Shown: positions 8,600 to 24,871 of the stretch, piece after piece
Layout of the letters: each line of letters starts with the position of its first letter
Position numbering within the stretch: the stretch's first letter is position 1
Assembly (NCBI GenBank): GCA_018304985.1
Contig: JAGVWP010000003.1
Span: forward strand, 988-64,987
Reading direction: 5' to 3'
Source: Candidatus Pacearchaeota archaeon
GTDB lineage: Archaea; Nanobdellota; Nanobdellia; Pacearchaeales; GW2011-AR1
Length of the DNA: 64,000 bases
The notes under the pieces: model-generated
The model's database searches: none
The model's input: the letters and a program-made list of their open reading frames with translations, nothing else
Told to the model about the DNA's origin: nothing
Program-made: the position numbers and the translations under genes

Positions 8600-9847
8600 A
8601 TGGTGAACAAAACTAGGAGGGTTAGTTTTAAAAATAAAAAAGTAATAATTATTTTAGTAATTCTCCTGGCAATAATTATAATTGTCTCTGCAATAATTAT
8701 TTATCTGCAAAAAGCAAATATACTAACTGGAAATGTTATTGAAAGTGTTTTTAAGTCAGATGATTTTGAGCCGTTAAGATTAACAACAGGGGGTGGTGGA
8801 AGCACTCCACAAGCTTGCCCTCATCAACAAACTATTAGGGGATATTATTATCAATGTGTTGATAGAGATTGGCAAGGTAATGCTTATTGTGATGGAGAAG
8901 TGGTATCTCAAAATATTTATACCTGTACTGATAATCAATATCCAGATTGTTGCAAAACAGAAGTGCCTTGCCTTTCTGGCCAAACTAGATGTAGTGATGG
9001 AAGCTGTAGCACAAGTTGTGGAGGAGGGGGGGGAACCAATCCTCAACCAACACAAGAATGTCCTATTAATACTATAACAACTGAAGGAGATATTTATCGA
9101 TGTATTAGAACTAATATGGCTTCTTCTTGTCGTGGTTCTGGGTTAGTAAGTTATTTTTGCGACCCACTTAAATATCCAAATGAACCTGTATGCTGTCCGA
9201 TACTTCTCCCTACAAATCCTCAACCAACACCGAGAATTGAATGCCATGGAAGTAAAACAATTGAAGGTATAACTTACACTACCTTAAGATGCGCGAGAGC
9301 AACAGCTACATCTTGCAGAACTTGGGAAGAACCAGTTAGTGGAGCTAAATGTGAGCCTGAAACACGTCTTTGCTGCGGGATAAGAGGAACGGAAACAACA
9401 AACCCTCCGCCACCACCAGAATCATTTTGTCCAAAGGGATTTACAAAATCTAGCAGTGGAACTTGTGAACAAGAATGCACTAGTGATTCGGAATGTATTA
9501 ATACTTACAAAAGTGGACATAATGACCAAGAACCAAATATGGAAACTGATTCTGTTTATTGTGTAAACAAAAATAGTAAAAATATTTGTATGAAGAAAGA
9601 AAATGTGATATGTGATAAAAGAATTTCTGGAGAGGGAACAATAATGAATGGAGAGTTATTTAATAATTTAAAATATAGTTTTATATGCGCGGCGAATAGG
9701 CGACATAATCCGCAATCAAATTGTAACAGTCATGGACGTCAAGGATATGAATATATTTCTGATATAAAATGTGATGGAATTACAATACCAATATTCGGTA
9801 CACGCCTTAGTAGAAAAGTATGTTGTGCTAATAAATTGACTAACTAA
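8600..9847 (+). CDS. secreted or anchored modular Cys-rich protein
   Basis: N-terminal TM VIIILVILLAIIIIVSAIIIY. Three Cys modules are separated by TNPQPT/TNPPPPP linkers. Two linkers share an identical 16-nt string (9038-9053 and 9215-9230). Confidence 0.6.
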   Translation: MVNKTRRVSFKNKKVIIILVILLAIIIIVSAIIIYLQKANILTGNVIESVFKSDDFEPLRLTTGGGGSTPQACPHQQTIRGYYYQCVDRDWQGNAYCDGEVVSQNIYTCTDNQYPDCCKTEVPCLSGQTRCSDGSCSTSCGGGGGTNPQPTQECPINTITTEGDIYRCIRTNMASSCRGSGLVSYFCDPLKYPNEPVCCPILLPTNPQPTPRIECHGSKTIEGITYTTLRCARATATSCRTWEEPVSGAKCEPETRLCCGIRGTETTNPPPPPESFCPKGFTKSSSGTCEQECTSDSECINTYKSGHNDQEPNMETDSVYCVNKNSKNICMKKENVICDKRISGEGTIMNGELFNNLKYSFICAANRRHNPQSNCNSHGRQGYEYISDIKCDGITIPIFGTRLSRKVCCANKLTN

Positions 9848-9988: not shown

Positions 9989-10180
9989 ATGCATCCTGCA
10001 ACCAAAACAAATAAATTGTTAGAATTTGTAAAGAAAAATAAGGTAGTTACTAGTTCTGAAGTTGCCAAATACTTTAAAATTTCATGGAATACTGCTGATA
10101 AATATCTTTTAGAGTTAGTTGTAGAGAATAAAGCTGAAAGAATAAAAAAAGAAGGGGTGAATTTATGGATAGCAAGATAA
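9989..10180 (+). CDS. small winged-helix protein, overlaps the start of the downstream pilin-like gene
   Basis: 63 aa. LLEFVKKNKVVTSSEVAKYFKISWNTADKYLLELV has an HTH pattern. 16-nt overlap with 10165. Confidence 0.5.
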   Translation: MHPATKTNKLLEFVKKNKVVTSSEVAKYFKISWNTADKYLLELVVENKAERIKKEGVNLWIAR

Positions 10181-10998
10181 TTTTAAAAAATCAAAATTGG
10201 AATAAACAAGCACAGGTAACAATCTTCATTATACTTGCAATACTTCTTGTTGCGGCAATAATCTTGCTTTTTACACTTTATAGGGGACCGATAAAAACAT
10301 ATCAGGATAAGCAATCAAAAGAGCCAAATCAAAATATTCCTCAGTGTCTAACTATTGGTGTTGAAGAAGCTGTTGAAAAATTATTGGATAATGCGGGCTA
10401 TATTAATAGCGAGGATATCAGATTCAGCAAGCAATTCGGCTATAATTTGGGAGAGGAAAATGAAATTCCCTATAAAAATTACACATATTTATGCTATACA
10501 CCGAATAACTATGCAAGATGCATTCCGCAAGAACCTGTTATAATAGAGCATCTTGAAACTGAAATTCAGAATTATATTAATGAAAAAATAAAAGATTGCT
10601 TTTCTAAATTAAAACAGGAGCTAGAAAGTGAAGGGTATAAAGTTACATTAAATAATGAAATGAATTTTTCAGTTAATCTTGTTCCCGGAAGCGCAAGAAC
10701 TGCTGTTAATAGAAAAATGACAACTGAAAAATCAGGGCAGGAAAGAAAATTTACAGAATTTGTTTCAATTACTGAAAGCCCGCTTTATGATATTGCTGTT
10801 GCAACTCAAAAAATAATCGAGCAGGAAGCAAAATTCTGCAATTCAGATTATTTATTGATAATGAGAGAAAACCCCGAAATTGAAATTAATAAATTCCAAA
10901 CAGGAGATGATAATAAAATTTACACTGTCAAGCACATCAATACAGGAAAACTATGGATATTTGCTGTCAGAGGATGTGTGTTGAATACTCCGAGTTAA
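10165..10998 (+). CDS. class III signal peptide (type IV pilin-like) protein, module A
   Basis: N-terminus NKQAQVTIFIILAILLVAAIILLF ([GA]-Q followed by a hydrophobic stretch). Paralog of 15704-16504. Confidence 0.6.
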   Translation: MDSKIILKNQNWNKQAQVTIFIILAILLVAAIILLFTLYRGPIKTYQDKQSKEPNQNIPQCLTIGVEEAVEKLLDNAGYINSEDIRFSKQFGYNLGEENEIPYKNYTYLCYTPNNYARCIPQEPVIIEHLETEIQNYINEKIKDCFSKLKQELESEGYKVTLNNEMNFSVNLVPGSARTAVNRKMTTEKSGQERKFTEFVSITESPLYDIAVATQKIIEQEAKFCNSDYLLIMRENPEIEINKFQTGDDNKIYTVKHINTGKLWIFAVRGCVLNTPS

Positions 10999-11042
10999 AA
11001 TGAAATGAAAATCATAAATATATTAAATAAAAAGGAGGAAAA

Positions 11043-11144
11043 ATGAGCAAAAAAATGCGAGAGATATTATACTGGATTGCTGTAGCTGTTGCGGTAATAA
11101 CTACAATAATCTTAGTATATGGAATAATTATATCATTAATATAA
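11043..11144 (+). CDS. 33-aa single-TM micro-protein
   Basis: aggagg lies 6 nt upstream of the ATG. Translation is MSKKMREILYWIAVAVAVITTIILVYGIIISLI. Absent from the ORF track because of its size. Confidence 0.4.
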   Translation: MSKKMREILYWIAVAVAVITTIILVYGIIISLI

Positions 11145-11145
11145 A

Positions 11146-11325
11146 ATGGACATTGACTTGTTAAATTGGTGGGTAACCTTCATAAATTTTTTGATATTAG
11201 CATATATTTCAATTAATATAGTTAATACTCAATGTTTTAATACATTTCAAACAATATTATCTATCATTGGACTAGTTGGTTCTATTTTAGTCTTAATTAT
11301 CTCAATAGTATTAAGTAAAACATAA
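11146..11325 (+). CDS. 59-aa two-TM micro-protein
   Basis: Its ATG lies 1 nt after the preceding stop. Translation is MDIDLLNWWVTFINFLILAYISINIV...IIGLVGSILVLIISIVL. Confidence 0.35.
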   Translation: MDIDLLNWWVTFINFLILAYISINIVNTQCFNTFQTILSIIGLVGSILVLIISIVLSKT

Positions 11326-11333
11326 ATTCAAAA

Positions 11334-12680
11334 ATGAAAATAATAAACAGTAAGCTAGATAGAAAATCATATAAAAGTTTTGAAAATGTAGAAACGAATA
11401 AATCTACTAAGTTATTGAGTAATAAATTTAAGTTAAGTAATAATTCATTAGCTAATAATCCTAAACTAAATTGTGATAATAAAGTTAAGTTAATAGATGT
11501 TCGTAATGATTCAAGATTATCTAATTTAGCCAGCGTTTCTAGAGATTCAAGAACATTATTTATACTATCAATATTTGAGATAACATTACTAGTTTTAACT
11601 ACCTTCTCATTTTCATGGATGATTGGAAATACTAATTCCAATAATAACAACATACCTTATGATGATTTAAATAAAAATATTTTTGGCAGTTTAATTAAAG
11701 AACTTATTAATTTCATAGATATTATTCCAAGTGTTTCAGCGCAAACTCCTTCTGGAGTAAGCTGCTGCATTAATTCTCAAAGTGGCAATTCGTGCAGGGA
11801 ATTTCCAAGTTCGGAATGCGGCAATGAATGTGATGGAACTTGCCTGCCAACAAGTTGCGGTGAAACAACTCAATGCAAGGCAGGATGCTGTTATGATAAA
11901 GACGAAGGTTTATGCGATCCAAATAGTTTAAAACAGCAATGCGAGTCAAGAGTTAATGGAAATTGGATTGATGCGCCTTTTTGCGAGACAGCTGAATGCG
12001 CAAAGGGCTGCTGTGTTTTAGGATTTAGTTCGCAGTTTGTAACAGAACAGAGATGCACAAAACTATCGCAACTAGAAGGAATGCAAATGAATTTTAAACC
12101 AGAAATTACAGATGAATTAAGCTGTTTGGGAATTGCAAATTCTGAAAAAACAGGAGCTTGTGTTTATGGAGAGGAAATAGCTGAAGAAAATAATAAGAGA
12201 AACTGCAAATTTACAACAAAACAGGATTGCGATTCCATACCTGGAGACTTTAATGAAGGCAAACTTTGTTCAAATACCGCGTTAAATACTGTTTGTGAAA
12301 AGCAAAGCTCAACAAATTGTTTAGAAGGAAGAGATGAGATTTATTGGTTTGACAGCTGCGGAAATGTTGAAAATATTTACAGTTCTGACAAGCAAAGGGC
12401 TTGGAATAATGGATTAGTGTTAAGTGAATCGCAATCATGCAATCCTAATTCAAATAATGCTGGAAGTTCAACATGCGGAAATTGCGATTATAATTTGGGA
12501 AGTATTTGCGGAAAGTTCAGGCCTGGAATTGATGATGGAAATTTAGAAGGATATACATGCAGAGATTTGAATTGCAAGAATTTAAAAAAAGAAGTGAGTG
12601 ATAAGAGTACAAGAATAAATGGAGAATCATGGTGTGTTTATGATGGAATACTGGAGATTCTGTTTTGTCAAATATTATAG
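11334..12680 (+). CDS. giant Cys-rich membrane/surface protein, module A, N-terminal part (frameshifted near 12645)
   Basis: Paralog of 16819-18912 (GCCYD, GCCVLG, DSCGN..NIY, CGNCDY, GESWCVYD). The homologous sequence continues in another frame after GESWCVYD. Confidence 0.65.
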   Translation: MKIINSKLDRKSYKSFENVETNKSTKLLSNKFKLSNNSLANNPKLNCDNKVKLIDVRNDSRLSNLASVSRDSRTLFILSIFEITLLVLTTFSFSWMIGNTNSNNNNIPYDDLNKNIFGSLIKELINFIDIIPSVSAQTPSGVSCCINSQSGNSCREFPSSECGNECDGTCLPTSCGETTQCKAGCCYDKDEGLCDPNSLKQQCESRVNGNWIDAPFCETAECAKGCCVLGFSSQFVTEQRCTKLSQLEGMQMNFKPEITDELSCLGIANSEKTGACVYGEEIAEENNKRNCKFTTKQDCDSIPGDFNEGKLCSNTALNTVCEKQSSTNCLEGRDEIYWFDSCGNVENIYSSDKQRAWNNGLVLSESQSCNPNSNNAGSSTCGNCDYNLGSICGKFRPGIDDGNLEGYTCRDLNCKNLKKEVSDKSTRINGESWCVYDGILEILFCQIL

Positions 12681-15466
12681 GAAGACCTGTTTCGTCGAAT
12701 AGTAAAATTGATATTATGAGCACTGATTTAGTTGGAAGCCGTCATTTTAGATATGTTTGTGAAAACGGGGAGGTGGTAAGCGAACCATGCGCTGATTATA
12801 GAAAAGAAGTTTGTGTCCAGAATGAAAAATCTTTAAGCAATAGCAAAAAAATTGACGAGGCAATTTGCAGGGTAAATTTATGGGAGCAGTGTATTTCTGC
12901 AAATAGTGATGTTATTGGAAGTTTAACAGGAATTGGATGTGGGCCTAGTTGCATACAAAAATGCAATTCAAATCCTGACTGCAGGTTGCAAGTAACATAC
13001 GTTGATGAATTTTTTAGATTTGCAACTTGTGTCCCTCGTTATCCTCCTGGTCTTGATTTAAGTTCAACAAGTGGAATTGGAAGCATGGCACAAGGATATG
13101 CTTCTGGAATTGCTCAAAGTTATTTATCTGATTCAATTGGAGGAAGCATTGCATCAGGCACTTTAAGCAGCCTTGGCAATAATGGAGGAACAGATGCTTC
13201 CCAAGTATGTGACCTTGCATCGAAAACTTGTAAAGTTACTTATGTAAAAGCATGTTTTGGAGGTGGTTGGAAATGTGTAAATAATTGTGAATGCCAAGAA
13301 TCTTCATTCACAATACAAATGAGCAACTTATGTTCGAGCTTAGGAGATTGTGGGATAAAATCAAATATAGCAGGAAGAGTTACTTTAGGAGGAGCATTTA
13401 TTATGAAAAGGGGAAGTAAAGGCCATGCGCCTCCACAGCCATTTATAATGCTTCCTTTCCATTTGTGGATTGCAACACTTCAGGCAAAAATACAATCTGG
13501 AGGATTTTTTAAAGAGCAAGAAAATATTTTAGAATTAGCAGGGCAAGGGCTTTCTGATCCTTTTCTTGCGATTACAAGTGGTGCTCTGTCAGGAGTTAAT
13601 TTAATGACTCCAAACATTCCTGAATATGGGGGATTTAGTGCTGGGGGTGCTGCTGGGGGTGCTGCCGCAGGAGCAGCAATCGGCTCTTTTATTCCAGGGG
13701 TAGGAACAATTATTGGAGCAGTTTTAGGAGCAGTTCTCGGCGGCTTTTTCGAAGATATTTTAGCAGCGCTTTTCGGTTGTGGAAAAGTTAAAGAAGTAAA
13801 AATATCTTATAACTGCCAGCCATGGCAGAGGCCTAGCGGGGATGGAAGAACAGTAATAAGCAGGATTTTAGAGCGATTTGAAAGAGATGAAAATGGATTA
13901 ATAGCAAGACTTAATACTAAAAAAGGCTGCGAGTTTTGCAATAATGACAAGTTAAAACCTTGCACAAAATATAGATGTGAGAGCCTGGGTATGCGATGTA
14001 AATTAATTAATGAAGGAACAGGGCAAGATACTTGCATTACAGATAGTCAAGCAACTGGAATACCTATAATAACTCCGTGGGAGGAAGTATTGAATAAAAC
14101 ACTTTTCAGCTACCAAGATGTAAGTAACAATGGATTTAGAGTTAGAACAGCTGGCAATGATTGCATTGAAGCATTTACTATTTTATCATTTGGAGTAAAA
14201 ACAGATGTATTTTCTCAGTGCAGATGGAGCATGGATAATAATATTACAGAGTTTGATGAAATGATGCCTTTCTTAGAACAGAATTTATTTACTAAAAATC
14301 ATTCTTTAATCAGTATTTTACCGAGTGTTGAAAGTATTATTGCAAGCGAGACAGGAAATTCTGAAGAATTCCAACAAGCAATTGCAAATCCAGATATTTA
14401 CAATCCAATATTAAATCAAATTGGGGATTTGAATATTCATGTTAAATGCGCAAATATCGACGGCAAGACAAATGATCAGAATTACAGGATTAATTTCTGT
14501 GTTAAACCAGGACCTGATTTAACTCCCCCAGTTGTATACGCAACAACTCCTCCTGAAAATGCAATTGTTGCTTTAAATGCAACACAGCAAGAAGCAATAT
14601 TTTTTATTAATGAACCTAGTGAATGTAGAATAGATGTGATAAAACCGAGTTCAACAAATATGCAAGATGCTTACTTTAATTTAAGCAATTCAATGAGTTG
14701 TGAAACAGATGTTTTTGCAGGAACGCTTTTAGGTTTTCCTTGCAATGCAACTTTGCCATTAGCAACAGGCAATGAAATCAAATTTTATATTTTATGCAGA
14801 GACCAGCCTTGGCTTGGAGAAAATAATTCAAGAAATTTCGGAGCAAAAGAGGGAGGAGTTTATGAATATAAATTGCAAAGAAGCCCAAGCGAATTAAAAA
14901 TAACTTCAGTTTCTCCAAGCGGGGTAATAACTCGTGGAGCAGAGCCAATAAGCATTGAATTAGAAGCAATAACATCTGGAGGAGGTTATAATGGAATTGC
15001 GAGTTGCGAGTTTGAAGGAAGGGATCAAAATGGAAATACATGGGGAGATAATTTTCCTGAAACAGCAACTTCACATAAGTATTTGCTTAGTCAGATGAGA
15101 AGAGGAAATTATACAGTTAATGTTAAATGTTTGGATGCTGCTGGAAATTATGCAGAAAATTCAACAAGTTTTAATTTAATGCTTGATACTCAATATCCAA
15201 GCGTAACAAGAATTTATTATCAATCTGGAGATTTAACTGTTTTAACTGATGAAGATGCTACCTGCGCTTATAGCAATGATAATAATTCAACAACCTGCGG
15301 TTATGATTTTGAAACAGCAAGCAAGATGAATGGAAATTCAAGAGAACATAGTATTGTGTGGGATGTGAACAGCACATTTTACATAAAATGCGCTGATATC
15401 TGGGGAAACAAGCCAGGAAGCTGCTCAATAATTGCAAAGCCGAATAATGTTGCAGGAGTCAGGTAA
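12665..15466 (+). CDS. giant Cys-rich membrane/surface protein, module A, C-terminal part (open from 12644)
   Basis: LVGSRHFRYVC matches SVGSRYFRHLC in 16819-18912. The distal part (CQPWQRPSG, CTKYRCESLGMRCKLINEGT, PDLTPP, TDEDATCAYS) matches 19455-21845. Confidence 0.65.
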   Translation: MSNIIGRPVSSNSKIDIMSTDLVGSRHFRYVCENGEVVSEPCADYRKEVCVQNEKSLSNSKKIDEAICRVNLWEQCISANSDVIGSLTGIGCGPSCIQKCNSNPDCRLQVTYVDEFFRFATCVPRYPPGLDLSSTSGIGSMAQGYASGIAQSYLSDSIGGSIASGTLSSLGNNGGTDASQVCDLASKTCKVTYVKACFGGGWKCVNNCECQESSFTIQMSNLCSSLGDCGIKSNIAGRVTLGGAFIMKRGSKGHAPPQPFIMLPFHLWIATLQAKIQSGGFFKEQENILELAGQGLSDPFLAITSGALSGVNLMTPNIPEYGGFSAGGAAGGAAAGAAIGSFIPGVGTIIGAVLGAVLGGFFEDILAALFGCGKVKEVKISYNCQPWQRPSGDGRTVISRILERFERDENGLIARLNTKKGCEFCNNDKLKPCTKYRCESLGMRCKLINEGTGQDTCITDSQATGIPIITPWEEVLNKTLFSYQDVSNNGFRVRTAGNDCIEAFTILSFGVKTDVFSQCRWSMDNNITEFDEMMPFLEQNLFTKNHSLISILPSVESIIASETGNSEEFQQAIANPDIYNPILNQIGDLNIHVKCANIDGKTNDQNYRINFCVKPGPDLTPPVVYATTPPENAIVALNATQQEAIFFINEPSECRIDVIKPSSTNMQDAYFNLSNSMSCETDVFAGTLLGFPCNATLPLATGNEIKFYILCRDQPWLGENNSRNFGAKEGGVYEYKLQRSPSELKITSVSPSGVITRGAEPISIELEAITSGGGYNGIASCEFEGRDQNGNTWGDNFPETATSHKYLLSQMRRGNYTVNVKCLDAAGNYAENSTSFNLMLDTQYPSVTRIYYQSGDLTVLTDEDATCAYSNDNNSTTCGYDFETASKMNGNSREHSIVWDVNSTFYIKCADIWGNKPGSCSIIAKPNNVAGVR

Positions 15467-15576
15467 ATTAAAATATAATATATGAAAAATGAACAAATAG
15501 TGCTTAAAAGTAGATAAAAATATCCCTTTACTATATAGAAAAGTTTAAAAAACTGGTATCGACGAACTAAAAATTA

Positions 15577-15598
15577 TTCGTTCGCATTTTAGAACGAA
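15577..15598. promoter_or_regulatory. perfect 7-bp inverted repeat between modules A and B
   Basis: TTCGTTC-gcatttta-GAACGAA. ttattcgtt recurs at about 15607. Confidence 0.2.
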
Positions 15599-15703
15599 AA
15601 ATTAACTTATTCGTTTCCCTTTCAGAACTAACAAATTCAACATGGAAATGAAACAAAACTACAATATATTTATAAACAAAAATAGCTTTGGAAAAAGAGG
15701 AAC

Positions 15704-16504
15704 ATGACTAAGTTTAAAAAGAGGTTAGATAAGAAAGGTCAAATCACGATATTTGTAATAATTGCAATTGTTATAATTGCTGCTGTGATTTTATTTTTTA
15801 CTTTAACACAGCAAGGCAAAAATATTGTCCAGCAGGTTACAGGTTCTGAAGCAGCTTTAGATGTTGTTGGAGAAATAACGAATTGTATTGAGAATAATGA
15901 AGAAATAAATAACAAAATTGCTTTAATAACAAGCCAAGGCGGAAGTATTGCTCCTGAAAATTATATTTTATATAATAATTCTAAAGTTGAGTATCTTTGT
16001 TATTCTAGTGATTATTTGAAAACATGTTATATGCAACAGCCTTTATTGTTGCAGCACATAACACAGGAACTGCAGAATGCTGTGAGGACTGATGTTGAAA
16101 GCTGTTTTGCTAAAGAAAAAGAGCTTTTAGAAAGCAGAGGATATAATGTTAATTTAGGAAGAATAAATTTTTCTTTGGAAATTACTCCCGACAATTTAGT
16201 ATTTAACATTAATACCCCAATGACAATAACTAAAACAAACAGCCAGACATTCAAAGATTTTACAATCAGGAAGAATAGCGGTTTATATCAGTTAATTATG
16301 TTAAGCACGTCAATACTTAATTTTGAAGCAAGATACGGAGATAGTGATCCTGCATTATATATGACGCTTTATCCAAGCGTGAGAGTTGAAAAACAAAGAA
16401 AAAGCGGCGGCAGCAAGGTATATATTTTATCAGACCGAGATACTAATGAAGTATTCATGTTCGCAAGCAAAAGCTTGGCTTGGCCGCCGGGTTATAAATT
16501 ATAA
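15704..16504 (+). CDS. class III signal peptide (type IV pilin-like) protein, module B
   Basis: N-terminus KKGQITIFVIIAIVIIAAVILFF. Paralog of 10165-10998. Confidence 0.6.
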   Translation: MTKFKKRLDKKGQITIFVIIAIVIIAAVILFFTLTQQGKNIVQQVTGSEAALDVVGEITNCIENNEEINNKIALITSQGGSIAPENYILYNNSKVEYLCYSSDYLKTCYMQQPLLLQHITQELQNAVRTDVESCFAKEKELLESRGYNVNLGRINFSLEITPDNLVFNINTPMTITKTNSQTFKDFTIRKNSGLYQLIMLSTSILNFEARYGDSDPALYMTLYPSVRVEKQRKSGGSKVYILSDRDTNEVFMFASKSLAWPPGYKL

Positions 16505-16582
16505 AAAGAACCAATATGTTAAGTTTAACTTAACATCAAGATTATATAATCTTAATGGTTCTTCTTATGACATCTCCTTAAG
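16505..16582 (+). repeat. family-1 hairpin repeat with a 39-nt insertion in the loop
   Basis: aaaagaaccaat[atgttaagtttaacttaacatcaagattatataatctta]atggttcttcttatgacatctcc. Confidence 0.6.
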
Positions 16583-16725
16583 GAGAAAAAGAATGAAAAT
16601 GGAAAATAAAATAGTAAATAAAAAAAGAAAAAGTAACATAAAAGCAATGCGTCTCGTCGTCCTAAATGATAATCAAAACTTATATTTAAATCTTTCTATT
16701 TGTAAAAGAGCTAACATTAATATTT

Positions 16726-16797
16726 GGGCTGGTAGCATAATGGCTAATGCGTCTCGTCGTCGCCGAGAACATCGGAGTTCGATTCTCCGCCAGTCCA
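16726..16797 (+). tRNA. tRNA, anticodon GUC (Asp) by manual fold, with non-canonical C33
   Basis: Acceptor GGGCUGG/CCAGUCC, D arm GCAU-AAUGGCUA-AUGC, anticodon arm UCUCG-UCGUCGC-CGAGA, T arm CGGAG-UUCGAUU-CUCCG, discriminator A. 72 nt, no encoded CCA. Confidence 0.6.
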
Positions 16798-16818
16798 ACG
16801 CGACGATTTAAAAATAAA

Positions 16819-18912
16819 ATGAGCAAAAAATCATATAAAAGTTTTGAAAATGTAAGAAACAACTTAACTAGCAAGCAGTATGGTTATAATAATAAATCAG
16901 ATAAAATTAATAATAATTTAAATAGCAATAGAAATCATATAAAATCTGAAATTATAGCAACAATTAGATTTAATTCAGTTAGATTAAGTAATAAGGTTAA
17001 GTATAGTAAATTTAAATTAAGTAATAATTCATTAGCTAATAATCCTAAATTAAATTGCGATAATAAAGTTAAGTTAATAGATGTTCATAATGATTCAAGA
17101 TTATCTATGCTCTCATTTATTTTCTTACTATCAACCATAATTATATTTTCAGCTTCCTTTATTTCAGCGCAAGCAACTACAACAGCAGATACTTCTCAAG
17201 TAAGCTATTGCTGCGAGAAAACTTTATCAGGAGCTTACTGCCAAAATGCTCAACTTGAACAATGCGATCCTAATTTTCAGAAAACTCCGACATCATGTGA
17301 ATCAACATCTTACTGCAAGAAAGGATGCTGCTATGACAGCAATGAGGGAATTTGCATGGAAAACACTCCAAGAGAAGCATGCAAAGCAAATAATGGGGCA
17401 TGGAGCGATAGTGCAAGCTGTGAAATTGCGCAATGTAATTTAGGCTGCTGTGTTTTAGGAACTCAAGCAGCTTATGTGCCTTTAGTCAGATGCAAGAAAC
17501 TTTCAGCTTTTTACGGACTGCAGACAGATTTCAGAACAAATATTGCTGATGAACTTTCCTGTATTGCTTTAGCATCTGCGCAGGATTTTGGAGCTTGTGC
17601 GTATGAATCTGAATTCACATCAACATGCAAGATGACCACAAGAGGAGATTGCCAGGCAAACAATCTTGGAAGTGTAAGCAATTCAACATCTGTAAAATTT
17701 TACAAAGATTATTTATGCACTGCAACTGAATTAGGAACTAATTGCCAGCCAACAGAAAAAACAGCATGTGTTGATGGAAAAGATGGAGTTTATTTTTTAG
17801 ACAGCTGTGGAAATGCTGCAAATATTTACAATGCAAATATGGCTTATAGTAAGGGCAAAGGAAATAAAGAAGCAGTTGATTATTGGACTAAAGTTAAAAA
17901 ACCTGAAGAATCATGCAACCCTGATTCAAGCAATGCTGATTCTAATAGTTGTGGAAATTGTGATTATCTGGCAGGAAGCATTTGCAAGAAAGCAGACAGA
18001 GGAAAAAAACCAACCTATGGAAATTATATTTGCAGAGATTTAAATTGTGAAGACACTAGCAATGGCAAAGATTACAAAAACGGAGAATCATGGTGCGTGT
18101 ATGATCAAGGAAAAAAAGATGTGGATAGTGTTGGAAGCAGATACTTTAGGCATTTGTGTTTTTCAGGGGAGGAAATTGTTGAAGCTTGCGAGAATTTCAG
18201 AAATCAGGTTTGTGTTGAATCAAGTATCGGTGAGGGAGAAGATTTTTCACAAGCGGGTTGCGTTGTCAATAGATGGCAGGATTGTGTTTTGCAGAATTCA
18301 AGCACTGATTGTGAGAATAGTGATAAAAGAGATTGTAAATGGGTTTCTTTAGCTATAACTGCAGAACAATTGAAAGAAGAAGTAAAAAGCAGAATTGATG
18401 CAAAAATTAACAAAGTAACTGGAGAAAAAGGAAGATGTGTTCCTAATATTGCTCCCGGATTAGAGTTTTGGGATCTAAGTTCTGAAGCGCAATGCAAACT
18501 GGGAAGCCAGAGTTGTGTTGTTAAATACGAGAAAAAAATAATCGGGCAGAAAAAATGCGTTGAAAATTGTGAGTGCTTGACACAGGCTGCAAAATTAAAA
18601 GCAAATCAAATCTGCAATTCATTAGGAGATTGCGGAGCTAAAATGAATTATATTGGAAAATTTGTAGATGCTGGATATAAAATATCTGTTAACAAAAAAG
18701 GAGAAGAAGAAAAAGAATCTGGGCAAGGAGGAACTGCACAGCCAGGAGCTGCAACAACTCAACAGACACAACCTCCGACAGTGGCAGAAGGACAGACTTT
18801 TGATGGCAGAACAGGAGATACATTTACACAACCTGCTAATGCGGGAACAACTGGAAATGTTATTCAGGGATTGGTAATTAAAACTTATAATAAAATATCG
18901 GGAGCTGACTAA
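16819..18912 (+). CDS. Cys-rich surface protein, module B part 1 (equivalent to the N-terminal two-thirds of the module A giant)
   Basis: The tracked ORF starts at 16747 inside the tRNA. The ATG at 16819 (MSKKSYKSFENV) matches the module A leader. Has a signal-like LSMLSFIFLLSTIIIFSASFISAQA followed by a Cys-rich domain. Confidence 0.65.
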   Translation: MSKKSYKSFENVRNNLTSKQYGYNNKSDKINNNLNSNRNHIKSEIIATIRFNSVRLSNKVKYSKFKLSNNSLANNPKLNCDNKVKLIDVHNDSRLSMLSFIFLLSTIIIFSASFISAQATTTADTSQVSYCCEKTLSGAYCQNAQLEQCDPNFQKTPTSCESTSYCKKGCCYDSNEGICMENTPREACKANNGAWSDSASCEIAQCNLGCCVLGTQAAYVPLVRCKKLSAFYGLQTDFRTNIADELSCIALASAQDFGACAYESEFTSTCKMTTRGDCQANNLGSVSNSTSVKFYKDYLCTATELGTNCQPTEKTACVDGKDGVYFLDSCGNAANIYNANMAYSKGKGNKEAVDYWTKVKKPEESCNPDSSNADSNSCGNCDYLAGSICKKADRGKKPTYGNYICRDLNCEDTSNGKDYKNGESWCVYDQGKKDVDSVGSRYFRHLCFSGEEIVEACENFRNQVCVESSIGEGEDFSQAGCVVNRWQDCVLQNSSTDCENSDKRDCKWVSLAITAEQLKEEVKSRIDAKINKVTGEKGRCVPNIAPGLEFWDLSSEAQCKLGSQSCVVKYEKKIIGQKKCVENCECLTQAAKLKANQICNSLGDCGAKMNYIGKFVDAGYKISVNKKGEEEKESGQGGTAQPGAATTQQTQPPTVAEGQTFDGRTGDTFTQPANAGTTGNVIQGLVIKTYNKISGAD

Positions 18913-18957
18913 AGGAAAGGTTTATAAATAATGTTATAACTATAAAGTAACACTAAA

Positions 18958-19419
18958 ATGAGCTTAACAGATAAAATAAAAGGAAAAATAGGAAAAGGAT
19001 TGGTATCTTTAACAGCATTAGCTGGAGGAATAGGATTAGCGGGATGTGAAACAACTCCTGCTGGATATGCTTTTGGAGCAGCAATGGTAAATACTGCTGT
19101 TGGGTCGGCAATTTCTGGAGAGTTTGATCCAAAGGGAACAAATGTAACTGTGAACATAAATAATTCAGGGATGAGTAATAAGAGAGTTGTTGATAATAGG
19201 GGAGAAACCAAAACAAATATTGGCGGAGTATATCGTCCAGAAAAATGGGATTATGTTTTTTATGAAAGTACACAAGAAGATGGATGTATAGAAGGAATAA
19301 TTGTTCCAAATGTTAGGGGGGGACAAATTTGCATATATGGTACAGTAAAGGGAGTAAATGGGGCTCATTTTATACCTTACAAATATGTTACAAAAGTAAT
19401 AGATAATGAAGGGAATTAA
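18958..19419 (+). CDS. small lipobox-containing protein inserted between the two halves of module B
   Basis: N-terminus LVSLTALAGGIGLAGC contains LAGC, a lipobox-like motif. Confidence 0.45.
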   Translation: MSLTDKIKGKIGKGLVSLTALAGGIGLAGCETTPAGYAFGAAMVNTAVGSAISGEFDPKGTNVTVNINNSGMSNKRVVDNRGETKTNIGGVYRPEKWDYVFYESTQEDGCIEGIIVPNVRGGQICIYGTVKGVNGAHFIPYKYVTKVIDNEGN

Positions 19420-19454
19420 TTATTTAATTAAACAAAAGAGATGAGAAAAAAGAA

Positions 19455-21845
19455 GTGATGAAAGAAAAAAATAAAAAAGAGTTGAGAAAAAAAAGAGAAA
19501 GTATTTTCATAATTTTGAATTTACTAGTTTCAATCTTAGCAATTGCTTTTATGATGGGGTTGGAAAGTGAGGGGGTGAGTGGAGCAGTTATTCCAAAACC
19601 ACAAAGTGCATTGGATGAGTTAGACAAAGCTATTAAAGATCTTAAACAACCAAAATCTCCGGCAACAATAGTTGCTCGTACAGAAGTAGATTTAAAACCC
19701 CTAACCCCTATAAAAGAAAGTGGTCAACTTAGCACTACTACAATTTCTGGAATAGAAACTAAAGTTGCAACAGATGTAGCAGCAACTCATGCAATAATTA
19801 ATGGTAAATATTATGAATTAGATTCTCTTGGCAGGGTTGTTGGAGAAATAGATAAAGCTAGTTTGCCCGCAGGAGCAAATGTAGTGCAAGGTACATCTAC
19901 AACACAAGGACCAGTTCCTCTTGGAACTCAAGTAACAAGTGAAACAGCTACAAAAGGTTACGGAAAACTAGCAAAAATATTAGGAATAAAAAATCCTGTG
20001 ATGGGAAATCTTGTTCAAGGAATTCAATGGTCAGCTGTCGCATATTTTGCAATTCCATTTATCGGAGATCTTCTTGGCTTGGAACCTGAAACAACAAAAG
20101 CATTGCAATATGCTGTAAGTTCTGGATTATTTGCTTATAATGCTGCTGAAGCAGTACAAGCTAGTTCTTTACTAGGAAAAAGTACTGGATTTTTTGCAAG
20201 TTCTAGTTTTCCAGCTATTGCTGGAATCGGCGTCGGCATAGCAGTCTTCATCCTTACATATGAAAAAGTTGAATATAAAACAGTAAGTTTTGAGTGTCTG
20301 CCGTGGGAAGCTCCTGTTGGGGGAAATGACTGCGAGAAATGCAATGATGAAATACAAACATGCTCAAGATATAGGTGCAAGAGTTTAGGGCAGGCTTGTG
20401 AATTAGTTAATGAAGGAACTGATAAAGAATTATGTTATTGGGCAAATCCAAAAGATGTTGCAAGTCCGATGATAACTCCATTGGAAGATGTTTTAACAGA
20501 TGGTTATGAATACACAAATACAAAACCAAGGCCTCCAAGCTGGGGAACAACAATTGTAAAAACAAGAAGCAAAGACGGATGCATTGCTGCTTTCACACCA
20601 ATTAGTTTTGGAATACAAACAAACAAGCCATCACAATGCAAGATTGATTTTAATAGAACAACAATGTATGATGAAATGCCGTTTTATTTTGGAGAATCAA
20701 ATTTATACGATTATAATCATACACAAAGAATGAATCTTCCAAGCCCTGATGCAATCAATTCATTTGCTAAAACAACTGAAAACGAGACAGGAGGATTAAC
20801 AATACAAAATGACGGAAGATATACATTATATGCAAGATGCCGAAGCGGAAACGGATTCTGGAATATTGATGCTTATGAAATAAAATTCTGTGTTGATAAA
20901 GGGCCTGACACAACTCCTCCTCAAATAATTGAAACAAGCATCAGAAATAATCAGCCTGTGCAATTTGAAATTGATAAAGTTCCAATTGTAGTTTATACTA
21001 ATGAGCCTGCTTCGTGCAGATGGAGCAGAACAGACCAGAACTTTAATAAAATGGAAAATAACATGTCGTGTGCAAGCAACCCTATGCAAATGCAGTCAAA
21101 TTTATTATATGCCTGCAGTGGAGAATTGACAAATATTGAAGACAGAAAAGACAATAATTTTTATTTCAGGTGTGAAGACCAGCCATGGAAACCAAAGAAT
21201 GAAAGAATACCAATGACTCAGAGTTATCAATTTACATTAAAAGGCACTCAACCATTAAATATAATTGAAGATTCAGTAAGTCCAAGTAATGAAACAGTGG
21301 AAGGAGCAACAACAACGGTTAATGTTACTCTATACCTAGAAACTGAACACGGATATAAAGATGGTGAGGCAACTTGCTATTATAATTCTGGAAATGAAGA
21401 TAACTATGTAGAATTTTTAGAAACAAATTCATATAAACATGTTCAGAGGCAGGATTTAACAGCAGGAACTTACACTTATTATCTCAAGTGTGTTGATCTT
21501 GGAGGAAATCAAGATACAACATCTACAACATTCGCAGTTTTTGTAGATACAAAAGAACCAAGTGTGGTAAGAGTTTTATTTGATGAAGATAAATTAAAAA
21601 TACAGACAGATGAAGATGCTGACTGTTATTACAGCACAAATGCAAATACCCAATGCAATTATGAATTAACAAATGAAGGAATTAGTTTAATGCCTCACGA
21701 AACTAATGACAATAAAAAAGAACATTTTGCGCCTTGGGATGCAAAAGAAACTTATTATATTAAATGCAAGGATAAAAATGGCAAGCAGCCATCTCCAACT
21801 CAGTGTTCTATAACTGTAAGGCCGACTGAGATAAGTATTATATAG
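19455..21845 (+). CDS. membrane/surface protein, module B part 2 (equivalent to the C-terminal part of the module A giant)
   Basis: Own N-terminal TM IFIILNLLVSILAIAFMMGL. Contains CLPWEAPVGG, CSRYRCKSLGQACELVNEGT, PDTTPP and TDEDADCYYS. GTG at 19455 or ATG at 19458. Confidence 0.65.
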   Translation: MMKEKNKKELRKKRESIFIILNLLVSILAIAFMMGLESEGVSGAVIPKPQSALDELDKAIKDLKQPKSPATIVARTEVDLKPLTPIKESGQLSTTTISGIETKVATDVAATHAIINGKYYELDSLGRVVGEIDKASLPAGANVVQGTSTTQGPVPLGTQVTSETATKGYGKLAKILGIKNPVMGNLVQGIQWSAVAYFAIPFIGDLLGLEPETTKALQYAVSSGLFAYNAAEAVQASSLLGKSTGFFASSSFPAIAGIGVGIAVFILTYEKVEYKTVSFECLPWEAPVGGNDCEKCNDEIQTCSRYRCKSLGQACELVNEGTDKELCYWANPKDVASPMITPLEDVLTDGYEYTNTKPRPPSWGTTIVKTRSKDGCIAAFTPISFGIQTNKPSQCKIDFNRTTMYDEMPFYFGESNLYDYNHTQRMNLPSPDAINSFAKTTENETGGLTIQNDGRYTLYARCRSGNGFWNIDAYEIKFCVDKGPDTTPPQIIETSIRNNQPVQFEIDKVPIVVYTNEPASCRWSRTDQNFNKMENNMSCASNPMQMQSNLLYACSGELTNIEDRKDNNFYFRCEDQPWKPKNERIPMTQSYQFTLKGTQPLNIIEDSVSPSNETVEGATTTVNVTLYLETEHGYKDGEATCYYNSGNEDNYVEFLETNSYKHVQRQDLTAGTYTYYLKCVDLGGNQDTTSTTFAVFVDTKEPSVVRVLFDEDKLKIQTDEDADCYYSTNANTQCNYELTNEGISLMPHETNDNKKEHFAPWDAKETYYIKCKDKNGKQPSPTQCSITVRPTEISII

Positions 21846-21951
21846 TGAGATTATTGTCTTCTGCTTCATCAACTCAGAGTTCGTTGATTACGTAGTTATC
21901 TAATTTTTGAAATATAAGAAAATGATAAATATTAAACTGATAAATTTAGTA

Positions 21952-22006
21952 TATCAAGCGATAAATTATGGATGGGTATGGCATGATTTCAAAATGTTCT
22001 TGAATC
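21952..22006 (-). repeat. family-2 repeat (inverted)
   Basis: Reverse complement reads gattcaagaacattttgaaatcatgccatacccatccataatttatcgcttgat. Confidence 0.55.
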
Positions 22007-22139
22007 TACACAATAGATAAATTTTCATTTGAGAAAATTTATGCCTGATTTATTATACTTATCTACTGATACACTTAATAGCTATAACTATTATATGGTT
22101 TAAGAAAACATTTAATAATCAACTTCTATTTAGTTAATT

Positions 22140-22733
22140 ATGATAAAAATAAAAGACACTAAGGTTTCTTTTATGAAACTTCCTTTTAATAGACCAAGGG
22201 CTTCTTTTATGAAGGTTTCTTTTAATAGAGGGCAGTTTCAAATCAGCTTTGGCATGATTTTTTCTATAATATTAATAGCTGTATTTATTGTTGTGGCAAT
22301 AATTGCAATCAATGCATTCTTAAAAATATCGTGCACTGCATCTAATGGGCAGTTTATCAAAGAATTAAGAGATGATGTTGAAAGGATATGGGCTCAAAGT
22401 GGGCAAGATGTCTTATTTGAATCAAGTTTAGGGAATGGGTTTTCGTGTAAGGTAGAAAAAGTCTGTTTTTTTAATTATGATAAACCTCAAAAAGGCCAGG
22501 CAAATGAAGAATATGAAGATTTTCAGACTTTCGGAACAAACTCTGAAAGTAATTTATATTTCTACCCCCAGAAAAATGCTGACCTTAAATCAGTAAATAT
22601 TGTTTATGTGAATATGCAGGCATTTGATGAAAATCCTTACTGCATAAAAGCAGAAAACGGAAAAATAAGAATGAGGTTAAGCAAGGATCAGTTTGCTGGA
22701 GAAACGCTTGTAAAAATAAAAAGAGATGAGTAA
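22140..22733 (+). CDS. class III signal peptide (pilin-like) protein (probable start 22209 or 22173)
   Basis: MKVSFNRGQFQISFGMIFSIILIAVFIVVAIIAINAF. All candidate ATGs upstream of the hydrophobic segment lie inside the family-1 repeat. Confidence 0.55.
   Translation: MIKIKDTKVSFMKLPFNRPRASFMKVSFNRGQFQISFGMIFSIILIAVFIVVAIIAINAFLKISCTASNGQFIKELRDDVERIWAQSGQDVLFESSLGNGFSCKVEKVCFFNYDKPQKGQANEEYEDFQTFGTNSESNLYFYPQKNADLKSVNIVYVNMQAFDENPYCIKAENGKIRMRLSKDQFAGETLVKIKRDE
22149..22230 (+). repeat. family-1 hairpin repeat, 2 units, overlapping the 5' end of the next gene
   Basis: aaaagacactaaggtttcttttatgaaacttccttttaat / agaccaagggcttcttttatgaaggtttcttttaatagag. Confidence 0.7.
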
Positions 22734-22795
22734 GATTAAAAAAGTTAACCCTACAAAATAGAAAGATTTATAAATATGTAGGTATAACTTATTTT

Positions 22796-23740
22796 ATGTA
22801 TTTTAAAATTAAAAGGATTAAGGGTAAGAAATATAAATATGCAGTTAAAACTATAAGGATGCCTAACGGAAAGGTTATTTCTTTAGAGAAAATATATAAG
22901 GAGAATAGCAAAGAATTAAGTAAATTTTTTGAAAAAAAAGAAAAAGAAAAATATGTAAAATACATGCTTTCAAATATAAGGACAGATCACATATTTACAA
23001 AAGAGCAGGTTGAAAAAATTGAAGAGATAAAGCTAAATTACAAAAAAATTCTTAGACAATTAAATAAATCAAATATTAAGGATATTTTAGACAGGTTTAC
23101 TGCTAATTTTACCTATGAAAGCAATGCTCTTGAAGGCAATTCTCTAACATTAAAAGATGTGGCAATTGTGATGTTTGAAAATGCTTCTATAAAAGGCAAG
23201 GATTTAAGAGAAATTTATGAAACAAGGAATTCTAGAGAAGTTGTTGAATTAATAATGAAGAATAAATTTGATATAAACCATAAAGATATAATAAGAATAC
23301 ATAAGATATTGGTAAAGGATGTTGGAATTAATACAGGTTACAAGAGAATTCCAAATTTTATTCAAGGCAGAGAAAATTTGAAAACAAGCCTTCCAGAAAA
23401 TGTTTACCAAAATATGGATAATTTAATCAAATGGTATCATGATAACAAAAGTAAAATTCATCCTATTAAACTAGCTGCTCTATTTCATGGAAAATTCGAA
23501 CAAATTCATCCATTTGAAGACGGAAATGGCAGGGTTGGAAGGTTTTTGATAAATGTTATTCTTATAAAAAATAAATATCCCCCATTAATAATAAGAAAAT
23601 CACAAAGAATTTCTTATCTAGGGGCGTTAACAAAATTTGATGCTAAATATACAGATAATCTTGAAAGGTTTATTTTAGAGAGATTTAAAGAAACTTACAG
23701 TAAATTTTTTGAGATATATGTTAAGTATCTTAAAGATTAA
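22796..23740 (+). CDS. fic: Fic/DOC family protein (putative AMPylase)
   Basis: Canonical Fic motif HPFEDGNGRVGR. Confidence 0.85.
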   Translation: MYFKIKRIKGKKYKYAVKTIRMPNGKVISLEKIYKENSKELSKFFEKKEKEKYVKYMLSNIRTDHIFTKEQVEKIEEIKLNYKKILRQLNKSNIKDILDRFTANFTYESNALEGNSLTLKDVAIVMFENASIKGKDLREIYETRNSREVVELIMKNKFDINHKDIIRIHKILVKDVGINTGYKRIPNFIQGRENLKTSLPENVYQNMDNLIKWYHDNKSKIHPIKLAALFHGKFEQIHPFEDGNGRVGRFLINVILIKNKYPPLIIRKSQRISYLGALTKFDAKYTDNLERFILERFKETYSKFFEIYVKYLKD

Positions 23741-23802
23741 AAATGTAAAGTATACTGAAATAATTTATATATCATACTTCATTAATTAAATTATAAAGAG
23801 AG

Positions 23803-24804
23803 TTGAAAGTGGTTAAATTAGACAATAAAAAAGCATTAGAAATGAGTTTTGCATGGATTTTTGCAATTATAGTTGGAGCAATAATTATTATAAGCGCTAT
23901 TTATATTGCAGGAAAATTTATTATTCCTGGCGGACAATATAGAGTTAATACAGAAACAGCCAAGCAAATTGCTAATGCCTTTGAACCATTGCAAACAAGT
24001 GTTGAAGAAATCAAATCAGACTCTTTAATCTTTATTAGTGAGACAAAATTATACACTTCTTGCAATTTAAATGAAGAATTTGGAGAAAATAGATTTGAGA
24101 TTTCAGAAAGAAGCGGGTTTAATAAACAATGGACTGAAAGAGGGGGGGATATTGCTTCTAAAAATTATGTTTTTGCTGAAGAGGAAATAGAAACTAAAGA
24201 AGATAAGAGGGTTTATTTCCTTGTTAAACAATTTAAAATGCCGTTTAAAACAGCTGATGTGATTTCAATGTACACTAATAAATATTGCTTTGTTAACACT
24301 CCAGAAAGCATTGAAGAGGAGTTAAATGCCTTGAATTTAAAAGAAAATGGAACAAATATTGAATTGAAAACAGCAGTAAGCAGTTGTGATGAGGATAGTG
24401 TTAAGGTTTGTTTTAACAGTCAAGGTAATTGTGATGTAATTGTTTCGTGCAATGATTTTGAATGTAACAATGGATATGTTAAAAAAGGGAGCAATTATAA
24501 AGAGTATTTTTCAAAGGCTCTTGTGTATGGGGCAATTTTCAGCTCAAAAGAAGACTATGAATGCAATGTTGAAAGAATAATGAAAAGATTAAATGCCTTA
24601 AGTGAACTTTATGCTGATAAAGCTACGTTCATTTCTGGAAAAGGATGCAATACAGGATTAAATGCAGATATCGTAGCTCTTGCTCAGCTAACAAGCAAGT
24701 TTAATATTAAAAAAATTGAATCAGAATTGCCTGTAATTGAAGCACAGGCAATGACAATTGAAGAGAAAAACAAGCCGGAAAATTTAGTTTGCCAGCTTTT
24801 TTAA
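23803..24804 (+). CDS. class III signal peptide (pilin-like) protein, Cys-containing
   Basis: TTG/GTG start. NKKALEMSFAWIFAIIVGAIIIISAIYIA. Multiple Cys in the C-terminal half. Confidence 0.5.
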   Translation: MKVVKLDNKKALEMSFAWIFAIIVGAIIIISAIYIAGKFIIPGGQYRVNTETAKQIANAFEPLQTSVEEIKSDSLIFISETKLYTSCNLNEEFGENRFEISERSGFNKQWTERGGDIASKNYVFAEEEIETKEDKRVYFLVKQFKMPFKTADVISMYTNKYCFVNTPESIEEELNALNLKENGTNIELKTAVSSCDEDSVKVCFNSQGNCDVIVSCNDFECNNGYVKKGSNYKEYFSKALVYGAIFSSKEDYECNVERIMKRLNALSELYADKATFISGKGCNTGLNADIVALAQLTSKFNIKKIESELPVIEAQAMTIEEKNKPENLVCQLF

Positions 24805-24805
24805 T

Positions 24806-24852: not shown

Positions 24853-24871
24853 CAAAGAGAAAAAAATAAAA

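Follow-up and report, generated by a model that had tools for sequence, protein, structure and literature searches.

A conserved cell-envelope gene cluster of pilin-like and giant cysteine-rich proteins beside an S-layer gene in Pacearchaeota and Woesearchaeota

Two modules, each consisting of a gene for a small pilin-like protein and a gene (or a gene pair) for a giant cysteine-rich membrane protein, lie one behind the other in a 64-kb stretch of DNA (the window) from a Candidatus Pacearchaeota genome. They belong to an ancient, vertically inherited cell-envelope cluster at 9989-29680 that occurs in DPANN archaea of the Pacearchaeota/Woesearchaeota type. The window is a stretch of the core chromosome with a G+C content of about 31%, and it also encodes PCNA, FtsZ, SepF, Spt5, prefoldin and many ribosomal proteins. 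A first-pass annotation, made from the letters alone, had given the DNA a DPANN-like assignment, which is borne out by the NCBI record of the first small protein (J4466_00755, Candidatus Pacearchaeota archaeon; neighbour genes are tagged J4466_00775 and J4466_00800). That annotation placed the surface module at 9989-21845. The open reading frames (ORFs) that it listed at 10165-10998, 15704-16504, 16819-18912, 18958-19419 and 19455-21845 are all present, but the cluster runs from a small winged helix-turn-helix (wHTH) gene at 9989 through four additional pilin-like genes to at least 25926, and synteny adds an S-layer gene at 26891-29680. Coordinates are those of the window and refer to the forward strand (+) unless the reverse strand (-) is named.

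Synteny was counted in 79 species-level loci of Pacearchaeota and Woesearchaeota with flanks of up to 10 kb on each side. The gene order is constant: PCNA, a wHTH protein of 63 amino acids (aa), a small protein, a fused giant, a second small protein, a giant-N gene (500-620 aa), a giant-C gene (680-930 aa), the pilin-like genes p197, p333, p174 and p175, a wHTH gene of the HVO_A0114 type on the opposite strand, and the S-layer gene. The modules are arranged as fused-then-split in 60 loci, while an extra fused copy occurs in six and a single module in two. Among the giant or giant-N genes with enough upstream sequence to be counted, 139 of 142 have a small-family gene directly 5' of them, at a median distance of 2 nucleotides (nt) and with 98 gaps of 60 nt or less; the pairing of a pilin-like protein with a giant is thus a conserved unit, as had been proposed, and the giant genes are probably translationally coupled to their upstream small partners. 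The run p197-p333-p174-p175 is kept in 25 loci in a fixed overlapping order, the HVO_A0114-family wHTH gene follows p175 in 21 loci, and in 16 loci with flanks long enough to include it the S-layer gene comes after this wHTH gene.

Small protein A (277 aa; 10165-10998) has a basic leader, ..NKQA/QVTIF.. (the slash marks the end of the leader), a hydrophobic helix, a linker and an alpha/beta globular domain, and small protein B (266 aa; 15704-16504) has the leader ..DKKG/QITIF.., a perfect FlaFind-like pattern. The consensus start of their family is ..K[KR][GA]QVTIFIILAI.., in which Q17, T19, F21 and I23 are near-invariant, and six cysteines are conserved, in protein A as elsewhere. Four further proteins of the cluster have an N-terminus of similar design: p197 (22140-22733, with a likely true start at ATG 22209), with KRG/QFQISFGMIFSIILI both here and as the family consensus; p333 (23803-24804), with KKA/LEMSFAWIF (family consensus KKG-[LFM]E[MF][SG]FAW[IL]F) and a cysteine-rich globular part with 10 Cys; p174 (24872-25396), with K.G/QLKIQQMAFML (family consensus KG-QLKIQQMAFML); and p175 (25399-25926), with KKA/QEEMVGF (family consensus KK[GAS]-QEEMVGF). 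In the six families the leaders are 8-16 aa long, basic and end in G, A or S, after which comes a hydrophobic stretch, and Gln at +1 is conserved in five of the six, p333 having L, F or M at that position. The loose pattern [KR]x0-1[GAS]Q is found in 153 of 159 small-family members, 29 of 33 p197 members and all 26 members each of the p174 and p175 families, so that the N-terminus first described for A and B (a basic residue, any residue, G or A, Q and a hydrophobic stretch) holds family-wide. Class III signals of the FlaFind type have a short, positively charged leader that ends in [KR][GA] and precedes some 20 hydrophobic residues close to the N-terminus. A strict six-residue FlaFind-like pattern fits 117 of the 159 small-family members and 0-2 members of each of the other families. 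Sequence conservation inside the anchor helix is typical of type IV prepilins, and to judge from the sequence the small proteins may be cleaved at the class III site.

The small family is a large one: 49 matches were obtained by word-indexed search, while the number of representative clusters in a profile search is 7141 at E<=1e-3 and 613 at E<=1e-30, with lengths of 250-290 aa in nearly every case. For p333 there are 96 homologues, all hypothetical and with no Pfam assignment. The AlphaFold model of small protein A (predicted local distance difference test score, pLDDT, 89) shows a helix at residues 11-39, a disordered segment at 40-53 and then a three-helix alpha/beta domain, and a Foldseek search of the PDB with this fold gave no significant match (best E=0.019, TM<0.2). 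Profile-profile comparison of the six families detects a weak likeness, mostly in the N-terminal helix (p197 versus p333, 95% probability; small B versus p197, 91%); no common origin of the six is claimed. The 5' end of the p197 ORF carries a 31-nt tandem-like direct repeat (22163-22229; 87% identical, 36 nt apart), by which the peptide VSFMKLPFNR is doubled as ASFMKVSFNR.

The giant proteins form a family with more than 437 matches in protein collections, all of them hypothetical proteins of 1100-1400 aa. Wherever an informative archaeal name is given among these matches, it is Pacearchaeota or Nanoarchaeota; of two other records, one bears the label 'Paceibacterota bacterium' and the second reads only 'archaeon'. 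Species-representative genomes hold at least 522 matching stretches, from Pacearchaeota, Woesearchaeota, Nanoarchaeota or an unclassified archaeon, again with one labelled Paceibacterota bacterium. The giants were thought from the letters alone to lack a characterised family, and searches of Pfam, NCBIfam and PDB sequences agree. Profile searches of both the giant and the small family against PDB sequences found nothing, the Cys-rich N module of the giants has no match in Pfam, NCBIfam or PDB sequences, and no S-layer domain model of Pfam or NCBIfam matches a giant or a small protein. Above cut-off, the Pfam and NCBIfam scans of the cluster proteins reported only the Fic, HVO_A0114 and S_layer_C neighbours described below.

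Cysteine is abundant in the giants, with 73 residues in intact giant A and 46 and 21 in the N and C proteins of giant B, and about 48 Cys columns are invariant over both halves in 80 homologues; from the spread of these invariant residues across both halves it is argued that both are extracytoplasmic. An N-terminal segment that resembles a transmembrane (TM) helix occurs in 60 of the 60 homologues analysed. The halves are joined by a variable linker (35% G+A+S) that bears hydrophobic segments in 58 of the 60, with at least 36 hydrophobic residues in 49 and none in two, and its sequence is consistent with a membrane hairpin. In the AlphaFold model of a 1165-aa homologue (P0025; pLDDT 82.5) an N-terminal helix is followed by a beta-rich Cys module at 54-520, which opens with three beta-hairpin-helix units, each beginning at GCC motifs, and then by a disordered linker with helices at 599-613 and 632-648 and tandem beta-sandwiches at 653-1165. 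Foldseek searches of PDB and BFVD matched these sandwiches to arrays of immunoglobulin (Ig), fibronectin type III (FN3) and cadherin domains, an RTX adhesin, GhpA and phage fibre or tail proteins (E 1e-14 to 1e-8); all of the fold matches fell on the Ig/FN3-like region, which masked the N module. The adhesin-like character first suggested for the giants is therefore supported by the predicted tandem Ig-like domains of the C half, which are of the kind found in adhesins, although tandem beta-sandwiches in an exported protein indicate an Ig-like adhesin as a fold class only.

Giant B is split into a Cys-rich N gene, a small gene with a lipobox-like motif and a C gene, and split N orthologues of 500-620 aa are present in 60 loci. 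The N gene (16819-18912; 697 aa) encodes a tail, a TM or signal-like segment at residues 92-120 (..SFISAQA), the Cys-rich N module and a T/Q/G-rich low-complexity end, and its product has no C-terminal or other anchor. Between the halves lies a protein of 153 aa with the motif LAGC (18958-19419), and in many related loci the same slot holds one or more diverged small ORFs with an ..[AG]GC.. N-terminus. The C gene (19455-21845; 795-796 aa) is started by the gene caller at ATG 19458 and not at GTG 19455; its product has an N-terminal TM segment, a T/S/P-rich linker and hydrophobic segments at about residues 188-272, after which come a Cys-knot domain (CLPW...YRCKSLG...) and tandem Ig-like domains, with a Big_13 match (E=4.9e-5) below the Pfam cut-off. 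A tRNA-Asp (GTC) gene, found by both ARAGORN and Rfam, lies at 16725-16799 between small B and the N gene. Two close relatives, L077 and L062, have it at the same site, and more distant loci lack it; because of its presence a longer ORF starting at 16747 is regarded as spurious.

Giant A was first described as a single gene, 11334-15466, which does not hold for this DNA: an ORF at 11334-12680 is continued in another frame by one at 12665-15466. The 5' ORF encodes a K/N-rich N-terminal tail, the TM segment and the Cys-rich N module as far as GESWCVYD, where it is truncated by a frameshift, and the 3' ORF encodes the rest of the N module (VGSRHFR...LGDCG), the Gly/Ala-rich hydrophobic segment (about 13640-13780) and the C half, which begins at about 13787 and, going by the model of the homologue, consists of a Cys-knot domain and tandem Ig-like domains. 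Pfam matches of the 3' ORF to Gly-zipper and Big_13 models are weak, and Big_13 falls below the cut-off in this copy too. The frameshift is caused by a 79-nt deletion relative to sibling records, with its junction at 12647-12648. A 156-kb contig of another assembly (L001) is otherwise 100% identical, carries 79 extra nt after 12647 and has an intact ORF of 1403 aa, and the protein of a third record (P0001) keeps the intact segment GESWCVYDGPVGSLRDNTGGLASFVRNSLNFNNRENTGDSVL. In view of these two intact records a programmed frameshift was rejected; the loop concerned is variable, and its form in the window is either an allele with a deletion or the product of faulty assembly. Another contig (L002; ENA ERZ4903055 k141_2874293), followed from its position 12217 (about window 12381), is 99.9% identical up to WFDSCGN in giant A and then switches to sequence about 50% identical, that of a different giant homologue. 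This switch is either an assembly chimera or a recombination between alleles; hypervariability of giant A was set aside, since the change at a conserved motif may be a chimera. Two tiny hydrophobic ORFs of 33 and 59 aa (11044-11145 and 11147-11326) lie between small A and giant A and are called by gene callers in sibling contigs.

The two modules are paralogous, as had been recognised from the sequence (BLASTP E from 1e-28 to 2e-84). The small proteins A and B align with E=1e-28 and 31% identity over 180 residues. The giants align in their N parts (E=2e-84), in their C parts (E=1e-70) and between the middle of A and the end of the B N protein (E=4e-19), and the landmarks listed earlier (GCCYD, GCCVLG, DSCGN..NIY, CGNCDY, GESWCVYD, VGSR[HY]FR, C.PW, YRC.SLG, PD[LT]TPP and TDEDA.C.YS) were found in both copies. 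The small proteins group by position: in 55 of 55 genomes the first copy goes with its positional counterparts, and so does the second in 55 of 55, the median identity being 34% and 38% for positional orthologues and 29-31% for paralogues. From this grouping and from the constant arrangement it follows that the duplication and the split of copy B predate the sampled diversity; the tandem diverged duplication of the first-pass annotation is real, but it is neither recent nor local. Superimposed on it is a DNA repeat of 119 nt in the 5' tails of giant A (11405-11523) and of the giant B N gene (16989-17107), which is 90-95% identical between two genes whose proteins are only about 37% identical; the shared DNA lies in the first 190-290 nt, approximately, of both. 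In the closest relative (L077) the repeat is present in giant A only, which suggests a recent conversion of the 5' tail from A to B. A regulatory RNA or mobile element was rejected as an explanation: the repeat lies inside translated tails, occurs nowhere else in the window and is single in the closest relative.

The cluster is flanked by possible regulators and by the S-layer gene. The 63-aa winged-helix-like protein (9989-10180), whose gene overlaps the start of small A by 16 nt, has only weak helix-turn-helix matches (FaeA and S25-type in Pfam; Lrs14 and DeoR-type in NCBIfam), and homologues stand directly 5' of the first small gene in 41 related loci; it is likely the regulator of the cluster. 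At the other end, a protein of the HVO_A0114 winged-helix family (26159-26518, -; Pfam PF25212, E=2.9e-15) precedes the S-layer protein of 929 aa (26891-29680), which matches S_layer_C in Pfam above cut-off (E=2.3e-6). The latter has a Sec signal peptide and an N-terminal hydrophobic segment only, with no C-terminal membrane anchor.

Other genes in and around the cluster are less constant. A Fic/DOC-family gene (22796-23740; Pfam E=7e-22) is inserted between p197 and p333, where it breaks the otherwise conserved run, and none of the other loci that were searched showed it. Between PCNA and the cluster, 8600-9847 encodes a signal-anchored protein of 415 aa with 34 Cys (8.2%) in about four internal repeats of a Cys pattern, for which there is no match in Pfam or NCBIfam and no homologue at that position in the 79 related loci. 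Two genes on the reverse strand (1090-2439, - and 3035-5002, -) encode secreted proteins of 449 and 655 aa with Sec-type signals ending ..SFISA and ..SFVSA and with no confident family (weak DUF7107). Genes of equal size lie at these positions in two related loci (L009 and L010), by size comparison only, and the two proteins may belong to the same surface-protein neighbourhood. In the same two loci PCNA is adjoined by a gene similar in size to that of the 586-aa protein at 5120-6880 (-) and with the same weak DNA_primase_S match; in the window protein this match and one to LigD_Prim-Pol are both below cut-off. Downstream of the S-layer gene, a CARDB-domain protein of 537 aa (32340-33953, -; E=4.6e-7) is possibly a further envelope component, and the three small ORFs in between (30078-30680, 30752-31477 and 31773-32324) have no family match.

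From the anatomy, paralogy, linkage, conservation and folds described above we infer a topology, a mode of assembly and a function in contact. Each giant would be anchored by its N-terminal TM segment and expose an extracellular Cys-rich module of about 500 aa, a Gly/Ala-rich hydrophobic hairpin and a stalk, likewise extracellular, of some five Ig-like domains; the N module of copy B would be a separate protein and the C gene would supply the membrane segments and the Ig stalk. The giants would be exported by Sec, locked by disulfides and kept at the membrane alongside their pilin-like partners, whose hydrophobic N-terminal helices, with the signal cleaved or not, could bundle into a short membrane-rooted stalk and not a long pilus. 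The assembly would then pass through or beside the S-layer encoded by the adjacent gene and touch other cells or surfaces. Our tentative preference, to which we give a little less than an even chance, is that the cluster gives rise to a surface complex which is rooted in the membrane, extends outward with or through the S-layer and serves for contact, with the pilin-like helices as a short stalk or adaptor. This reading is in keeping with C halves of the adhesin type, with Cys-rich heads in a distal position and with the host attachment reported for Pacearchaeota, which are described as strongly host-attached and of minimal metabolism (bioRxiv 10.1101/2020.05.14.094862); the partner in such contact may be a host, as first surmised.

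A number of observations weigh against this contact complex. As the first-pass annotation had noted, a pilus ATPase, platform protein and prepilin peptidase are missing from the window: among its approximately 50 ORFs scanned with Pfam there is no T2SSE ATPase, T2SSF/FlaJ platform protein or A24 peptidase, and a Walker-A motif scan likewise found none. An assembly ATPase, platform protein or prepilin peptidase was not found in the flanks of the 79 loci either, nor was any T2SSE-type Walker A protein, so that the combination of ATPase, platform and peptidase with pilins that defines a type IV filament (TFF) system does not occur within the window and these flanks; according to one study, components of type IV pili are lacking in DPANN genomes. 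No pilin model of Pfam or NCBIfam (Class_IIIsignal/DUF361, Pilin_N, archaeal flagellin/pilin N-terminal) matches any of the six proteins, at cut-offs of E<=0.1 for small A, small B, p197 and p333 and E<=0.01 for p174 and p175 in Pfam, and E<=0.1-1 in NCBIfam. The Glu at +5 of EppA substrates is absent, position +5 being F, S, Q or V, with Glu instead at +2/+3 in p175 and at +2 in p333; small A of the window has Q and not K or R at position -2; and its globular domain, as modelled, is not of a pilin-type fold and is set off from the helix by a disordered linker, while in canonical pilins the N-terminal helix packs straight onto a beta-sheet or Ig-like domain. The matches of the Ig array are generic (TM-scores 0.1-0.3, 9-13% identity). 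Finally, one-to-one orthology, 30-48% identity and a fixed synteny in the core chromosome fit a housekeeping part of the envelope better than a fast-evolving, host-specific adhesin. On account of the missing +5 Glu, the incomplete fit to the strict pattern, the lack of a model match and the non-pilin fold, the small proteins are regarded as having a prepilin-like N-terminus without being canonical filament subunits; what stands of the earlier term pilin-like is the conserved class III-like N-terminus, and not membership among canonical pilins.

The main rival, a serious one though on balance unlikely, is an S-layer anchoring or organising scaffold of housekeeping envelope components: giants and pilin-like proteins would span the pseudo-periplasm and fasten the S-layer protein, which has no anchor of its own, to the membrane, in the manner of SlaB and not by way of contact with other cells. 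SlaB is the membrane-anchored partner that serves SlaA, and the cluster is likewise syntenic with an S_layer_C-family gene whose anchor-less product would need a membrane-anchored partner. The cluster adjoins the S-layer gene wherever flanks reach, the product of that gene carries a signal peptide but lacks a TM segment at the C-terminus, the giants have up to three membrane-embedded segments, and a single conserved core-chromosome locus beside PCNA, with one-to-one orthologues and many invariant residues, would suit a scaffold well. However, no cluster protein resembles SlaB, any other known S-layer anchor or any S-layer domain; it would be unusual for a simple anchor to come in two or three paralogous modules in each genome, with faster evolution of the first copy; large distal Cys-rich modules on Ig stalks are more typical of binding proteins; and gene adjacency alone does not demonstrate an interaction. 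We consider improbable a true accessory locus of a type IV filament, in which the four small proteins would be minor pilins of a priming or tip complex and the small/giant pairs tip adhesins that work like minor pilins with PilY1, the machinery and the major pilin being encoded elsewhere. Six clustered families with conserved class III-like N-termini speak for it, and four small pilin-like genes in a fixed overlapping order recall the four minor pilins of bacterial systems. In addition, archaeal pilin genes are often separate from the loci of the machinery (PMC4858521; PMC3875500), and TFF system 1 and subsystem 4A, the latter carrying a PilY-like adhesin, have been reported from some DPANN (bioRxiv 10.64898/2026.04.22.720090). 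It is opposed by the absence of machinery genes in the window and flanks, by the reported lack of pilus components in DPANN, by the lack of any match to a pilin model, by the absence of a short major pilin candidate in the window and by the TM anchors of the giants themselves, which would be needless in a protein of a pilus tip.

More doubtful still is a bolder form of the contact complex, in which prepilin-like proteins without type IV machinery would be membrane-rooted adaptors for giant two-part spikes whose Gly/Ala-rich element engages the host membrane. A related idea, a device for insertion, pore formation or fusion, would have the Gly/Ala-rich segment insert into the membrane of the partner and help to form a cytoplasmic or lipid bridge; we see a slim chance for it. 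It could account for a long Gly-zipper-like segment (weak Gly-zipper Pfam matches, 35% G+A+S in the linker) placed after a large disulfide-locked head, for a copy B head that is a separate and possibly secreted subunit, and for organisms with minimal metabolism that are attached to hosts. The idea is purely analogical, two family members are without a hydrophobic linker segment, neither a coiled coil nor a known fusogen fold is among the top fold matches, and the C half is a plain Ig array. Slimmest of all is the chance that the small proteins are ordinary type II signal anchors in which the [G/A]-Q junction is never cleaved, and that the proteins of the cluster, some in the membrane and some secreted, are expressed together but have unrelated or enzymatic functions. 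In its favour, no pilin model matches, simple Sec signals elsewhere in the window also fit a loose K/R-G pattern, and the strict pattern is found in only 117 of the 159 small members and in almost none of the other four families. Against it, the leader junction and the first residues of the helix are conserved in sequence over six families and dozens of species, which would be unexpected for plain anchors, and a pairing with the giants so close and so old points to a function in common.

Several characterised systems bear a likeness to parts of the cluster. In bacteria, the genes of minor pilins and of the tip adhesin PilY1 are grouped on similar lines: several small pilin-like proteins are encoded next to a surface protein that exceeds 1000 aa and is not a pilin, a layout shared by FimU-PilVWX-PilY1, by the archaeal TFF subsystem 4A and by the present cluster; in contrast to PilY1, which has no likeness in sequence or fold among the top matches, the giants have TM segments, a Cys-rich head, Ig-like domains and each a private partner gene. 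In the Sulfolobus bindosome, proteins that bind sugars and carry class III signal peptides are assembled by the Bas system and are thought to lie under or within the S-layer and not to form long pili. The likeness consists in prepilin-like N-termini on large non-pilin globular domains and in the supposed place in the envelope, whereas solute-binding domains and a BasEF-type ATPase and membrane protein nearby are lacking here, and the giant partners have no counterpart there. The C half of the giants (about 510 aa, with about five predicted beta-sandwich domains) is comparable to RTX adhesins, the grappling-hook protein GhpA and protocadherins; the likeness to Ig/FN3/cadherin adhesins is generic, and nothing in them corresponds to the Cys-knot first domain, Gly-zipper hairpin or N module. 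EppA substrates of Methanococcus maripaludis have leaders of 5-13 aa ending in Gly, Gln at +1 and Glu at +5 (PMC3875500). With these pilins (DUF361, Epd) the small proteins share a short basic leader ending in G or A, the +1 Gln, about 20-25 hydrophobic residues and clustering of the genes, and with the larger Methanococcus pilin-like proteins their size, 170-330 aa here (PMC3875500). They differ from EppA-type pilins in the missing +5 Glu and pilin-model match, in an alpha/beta domain without a PDB relative behind a disordered linker, and in the absence of machinery nearby. By analogy, then, the logic of the cluster resembles that of minor pilins with PilY1, the bindosome and SlaA/SlaB, and it appears to share sequence or fold with none of them beyond generic Ig domains. 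In the literature searched on pilins, S-layers and adhesins of Pacearchaeota, Woesearchaeota and DPANN, no description of the cluster or of its families was found.

The cluster raises the question of what prepilin-like proteins do in lineages that are said to be without pilus machinery, and the families concerned are very abundant in metagenomes, where the small partner alone accounts for more than 7000 representative clusters. Should prepilin-like adaptors indeed carry spikes that engage a host membrane, the operon would be the long-sought host-contact, bridge-forming apparatus of Pacearchaeota and Woesearchaeota. These archaea are among the most abundant uncultured DPANN and are apparently attached to hosts, and so far no molecular apparatus of their attachment or envelope has been defined. 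A candidate is now delimited in the form of a vertically inherited cluster of about 12 genes beside an S-layer gene, composed of large unannotated families, which provides a concrete set of targets for proteomics, antibodies, cryo-electron tomography and the prediction of complexes.

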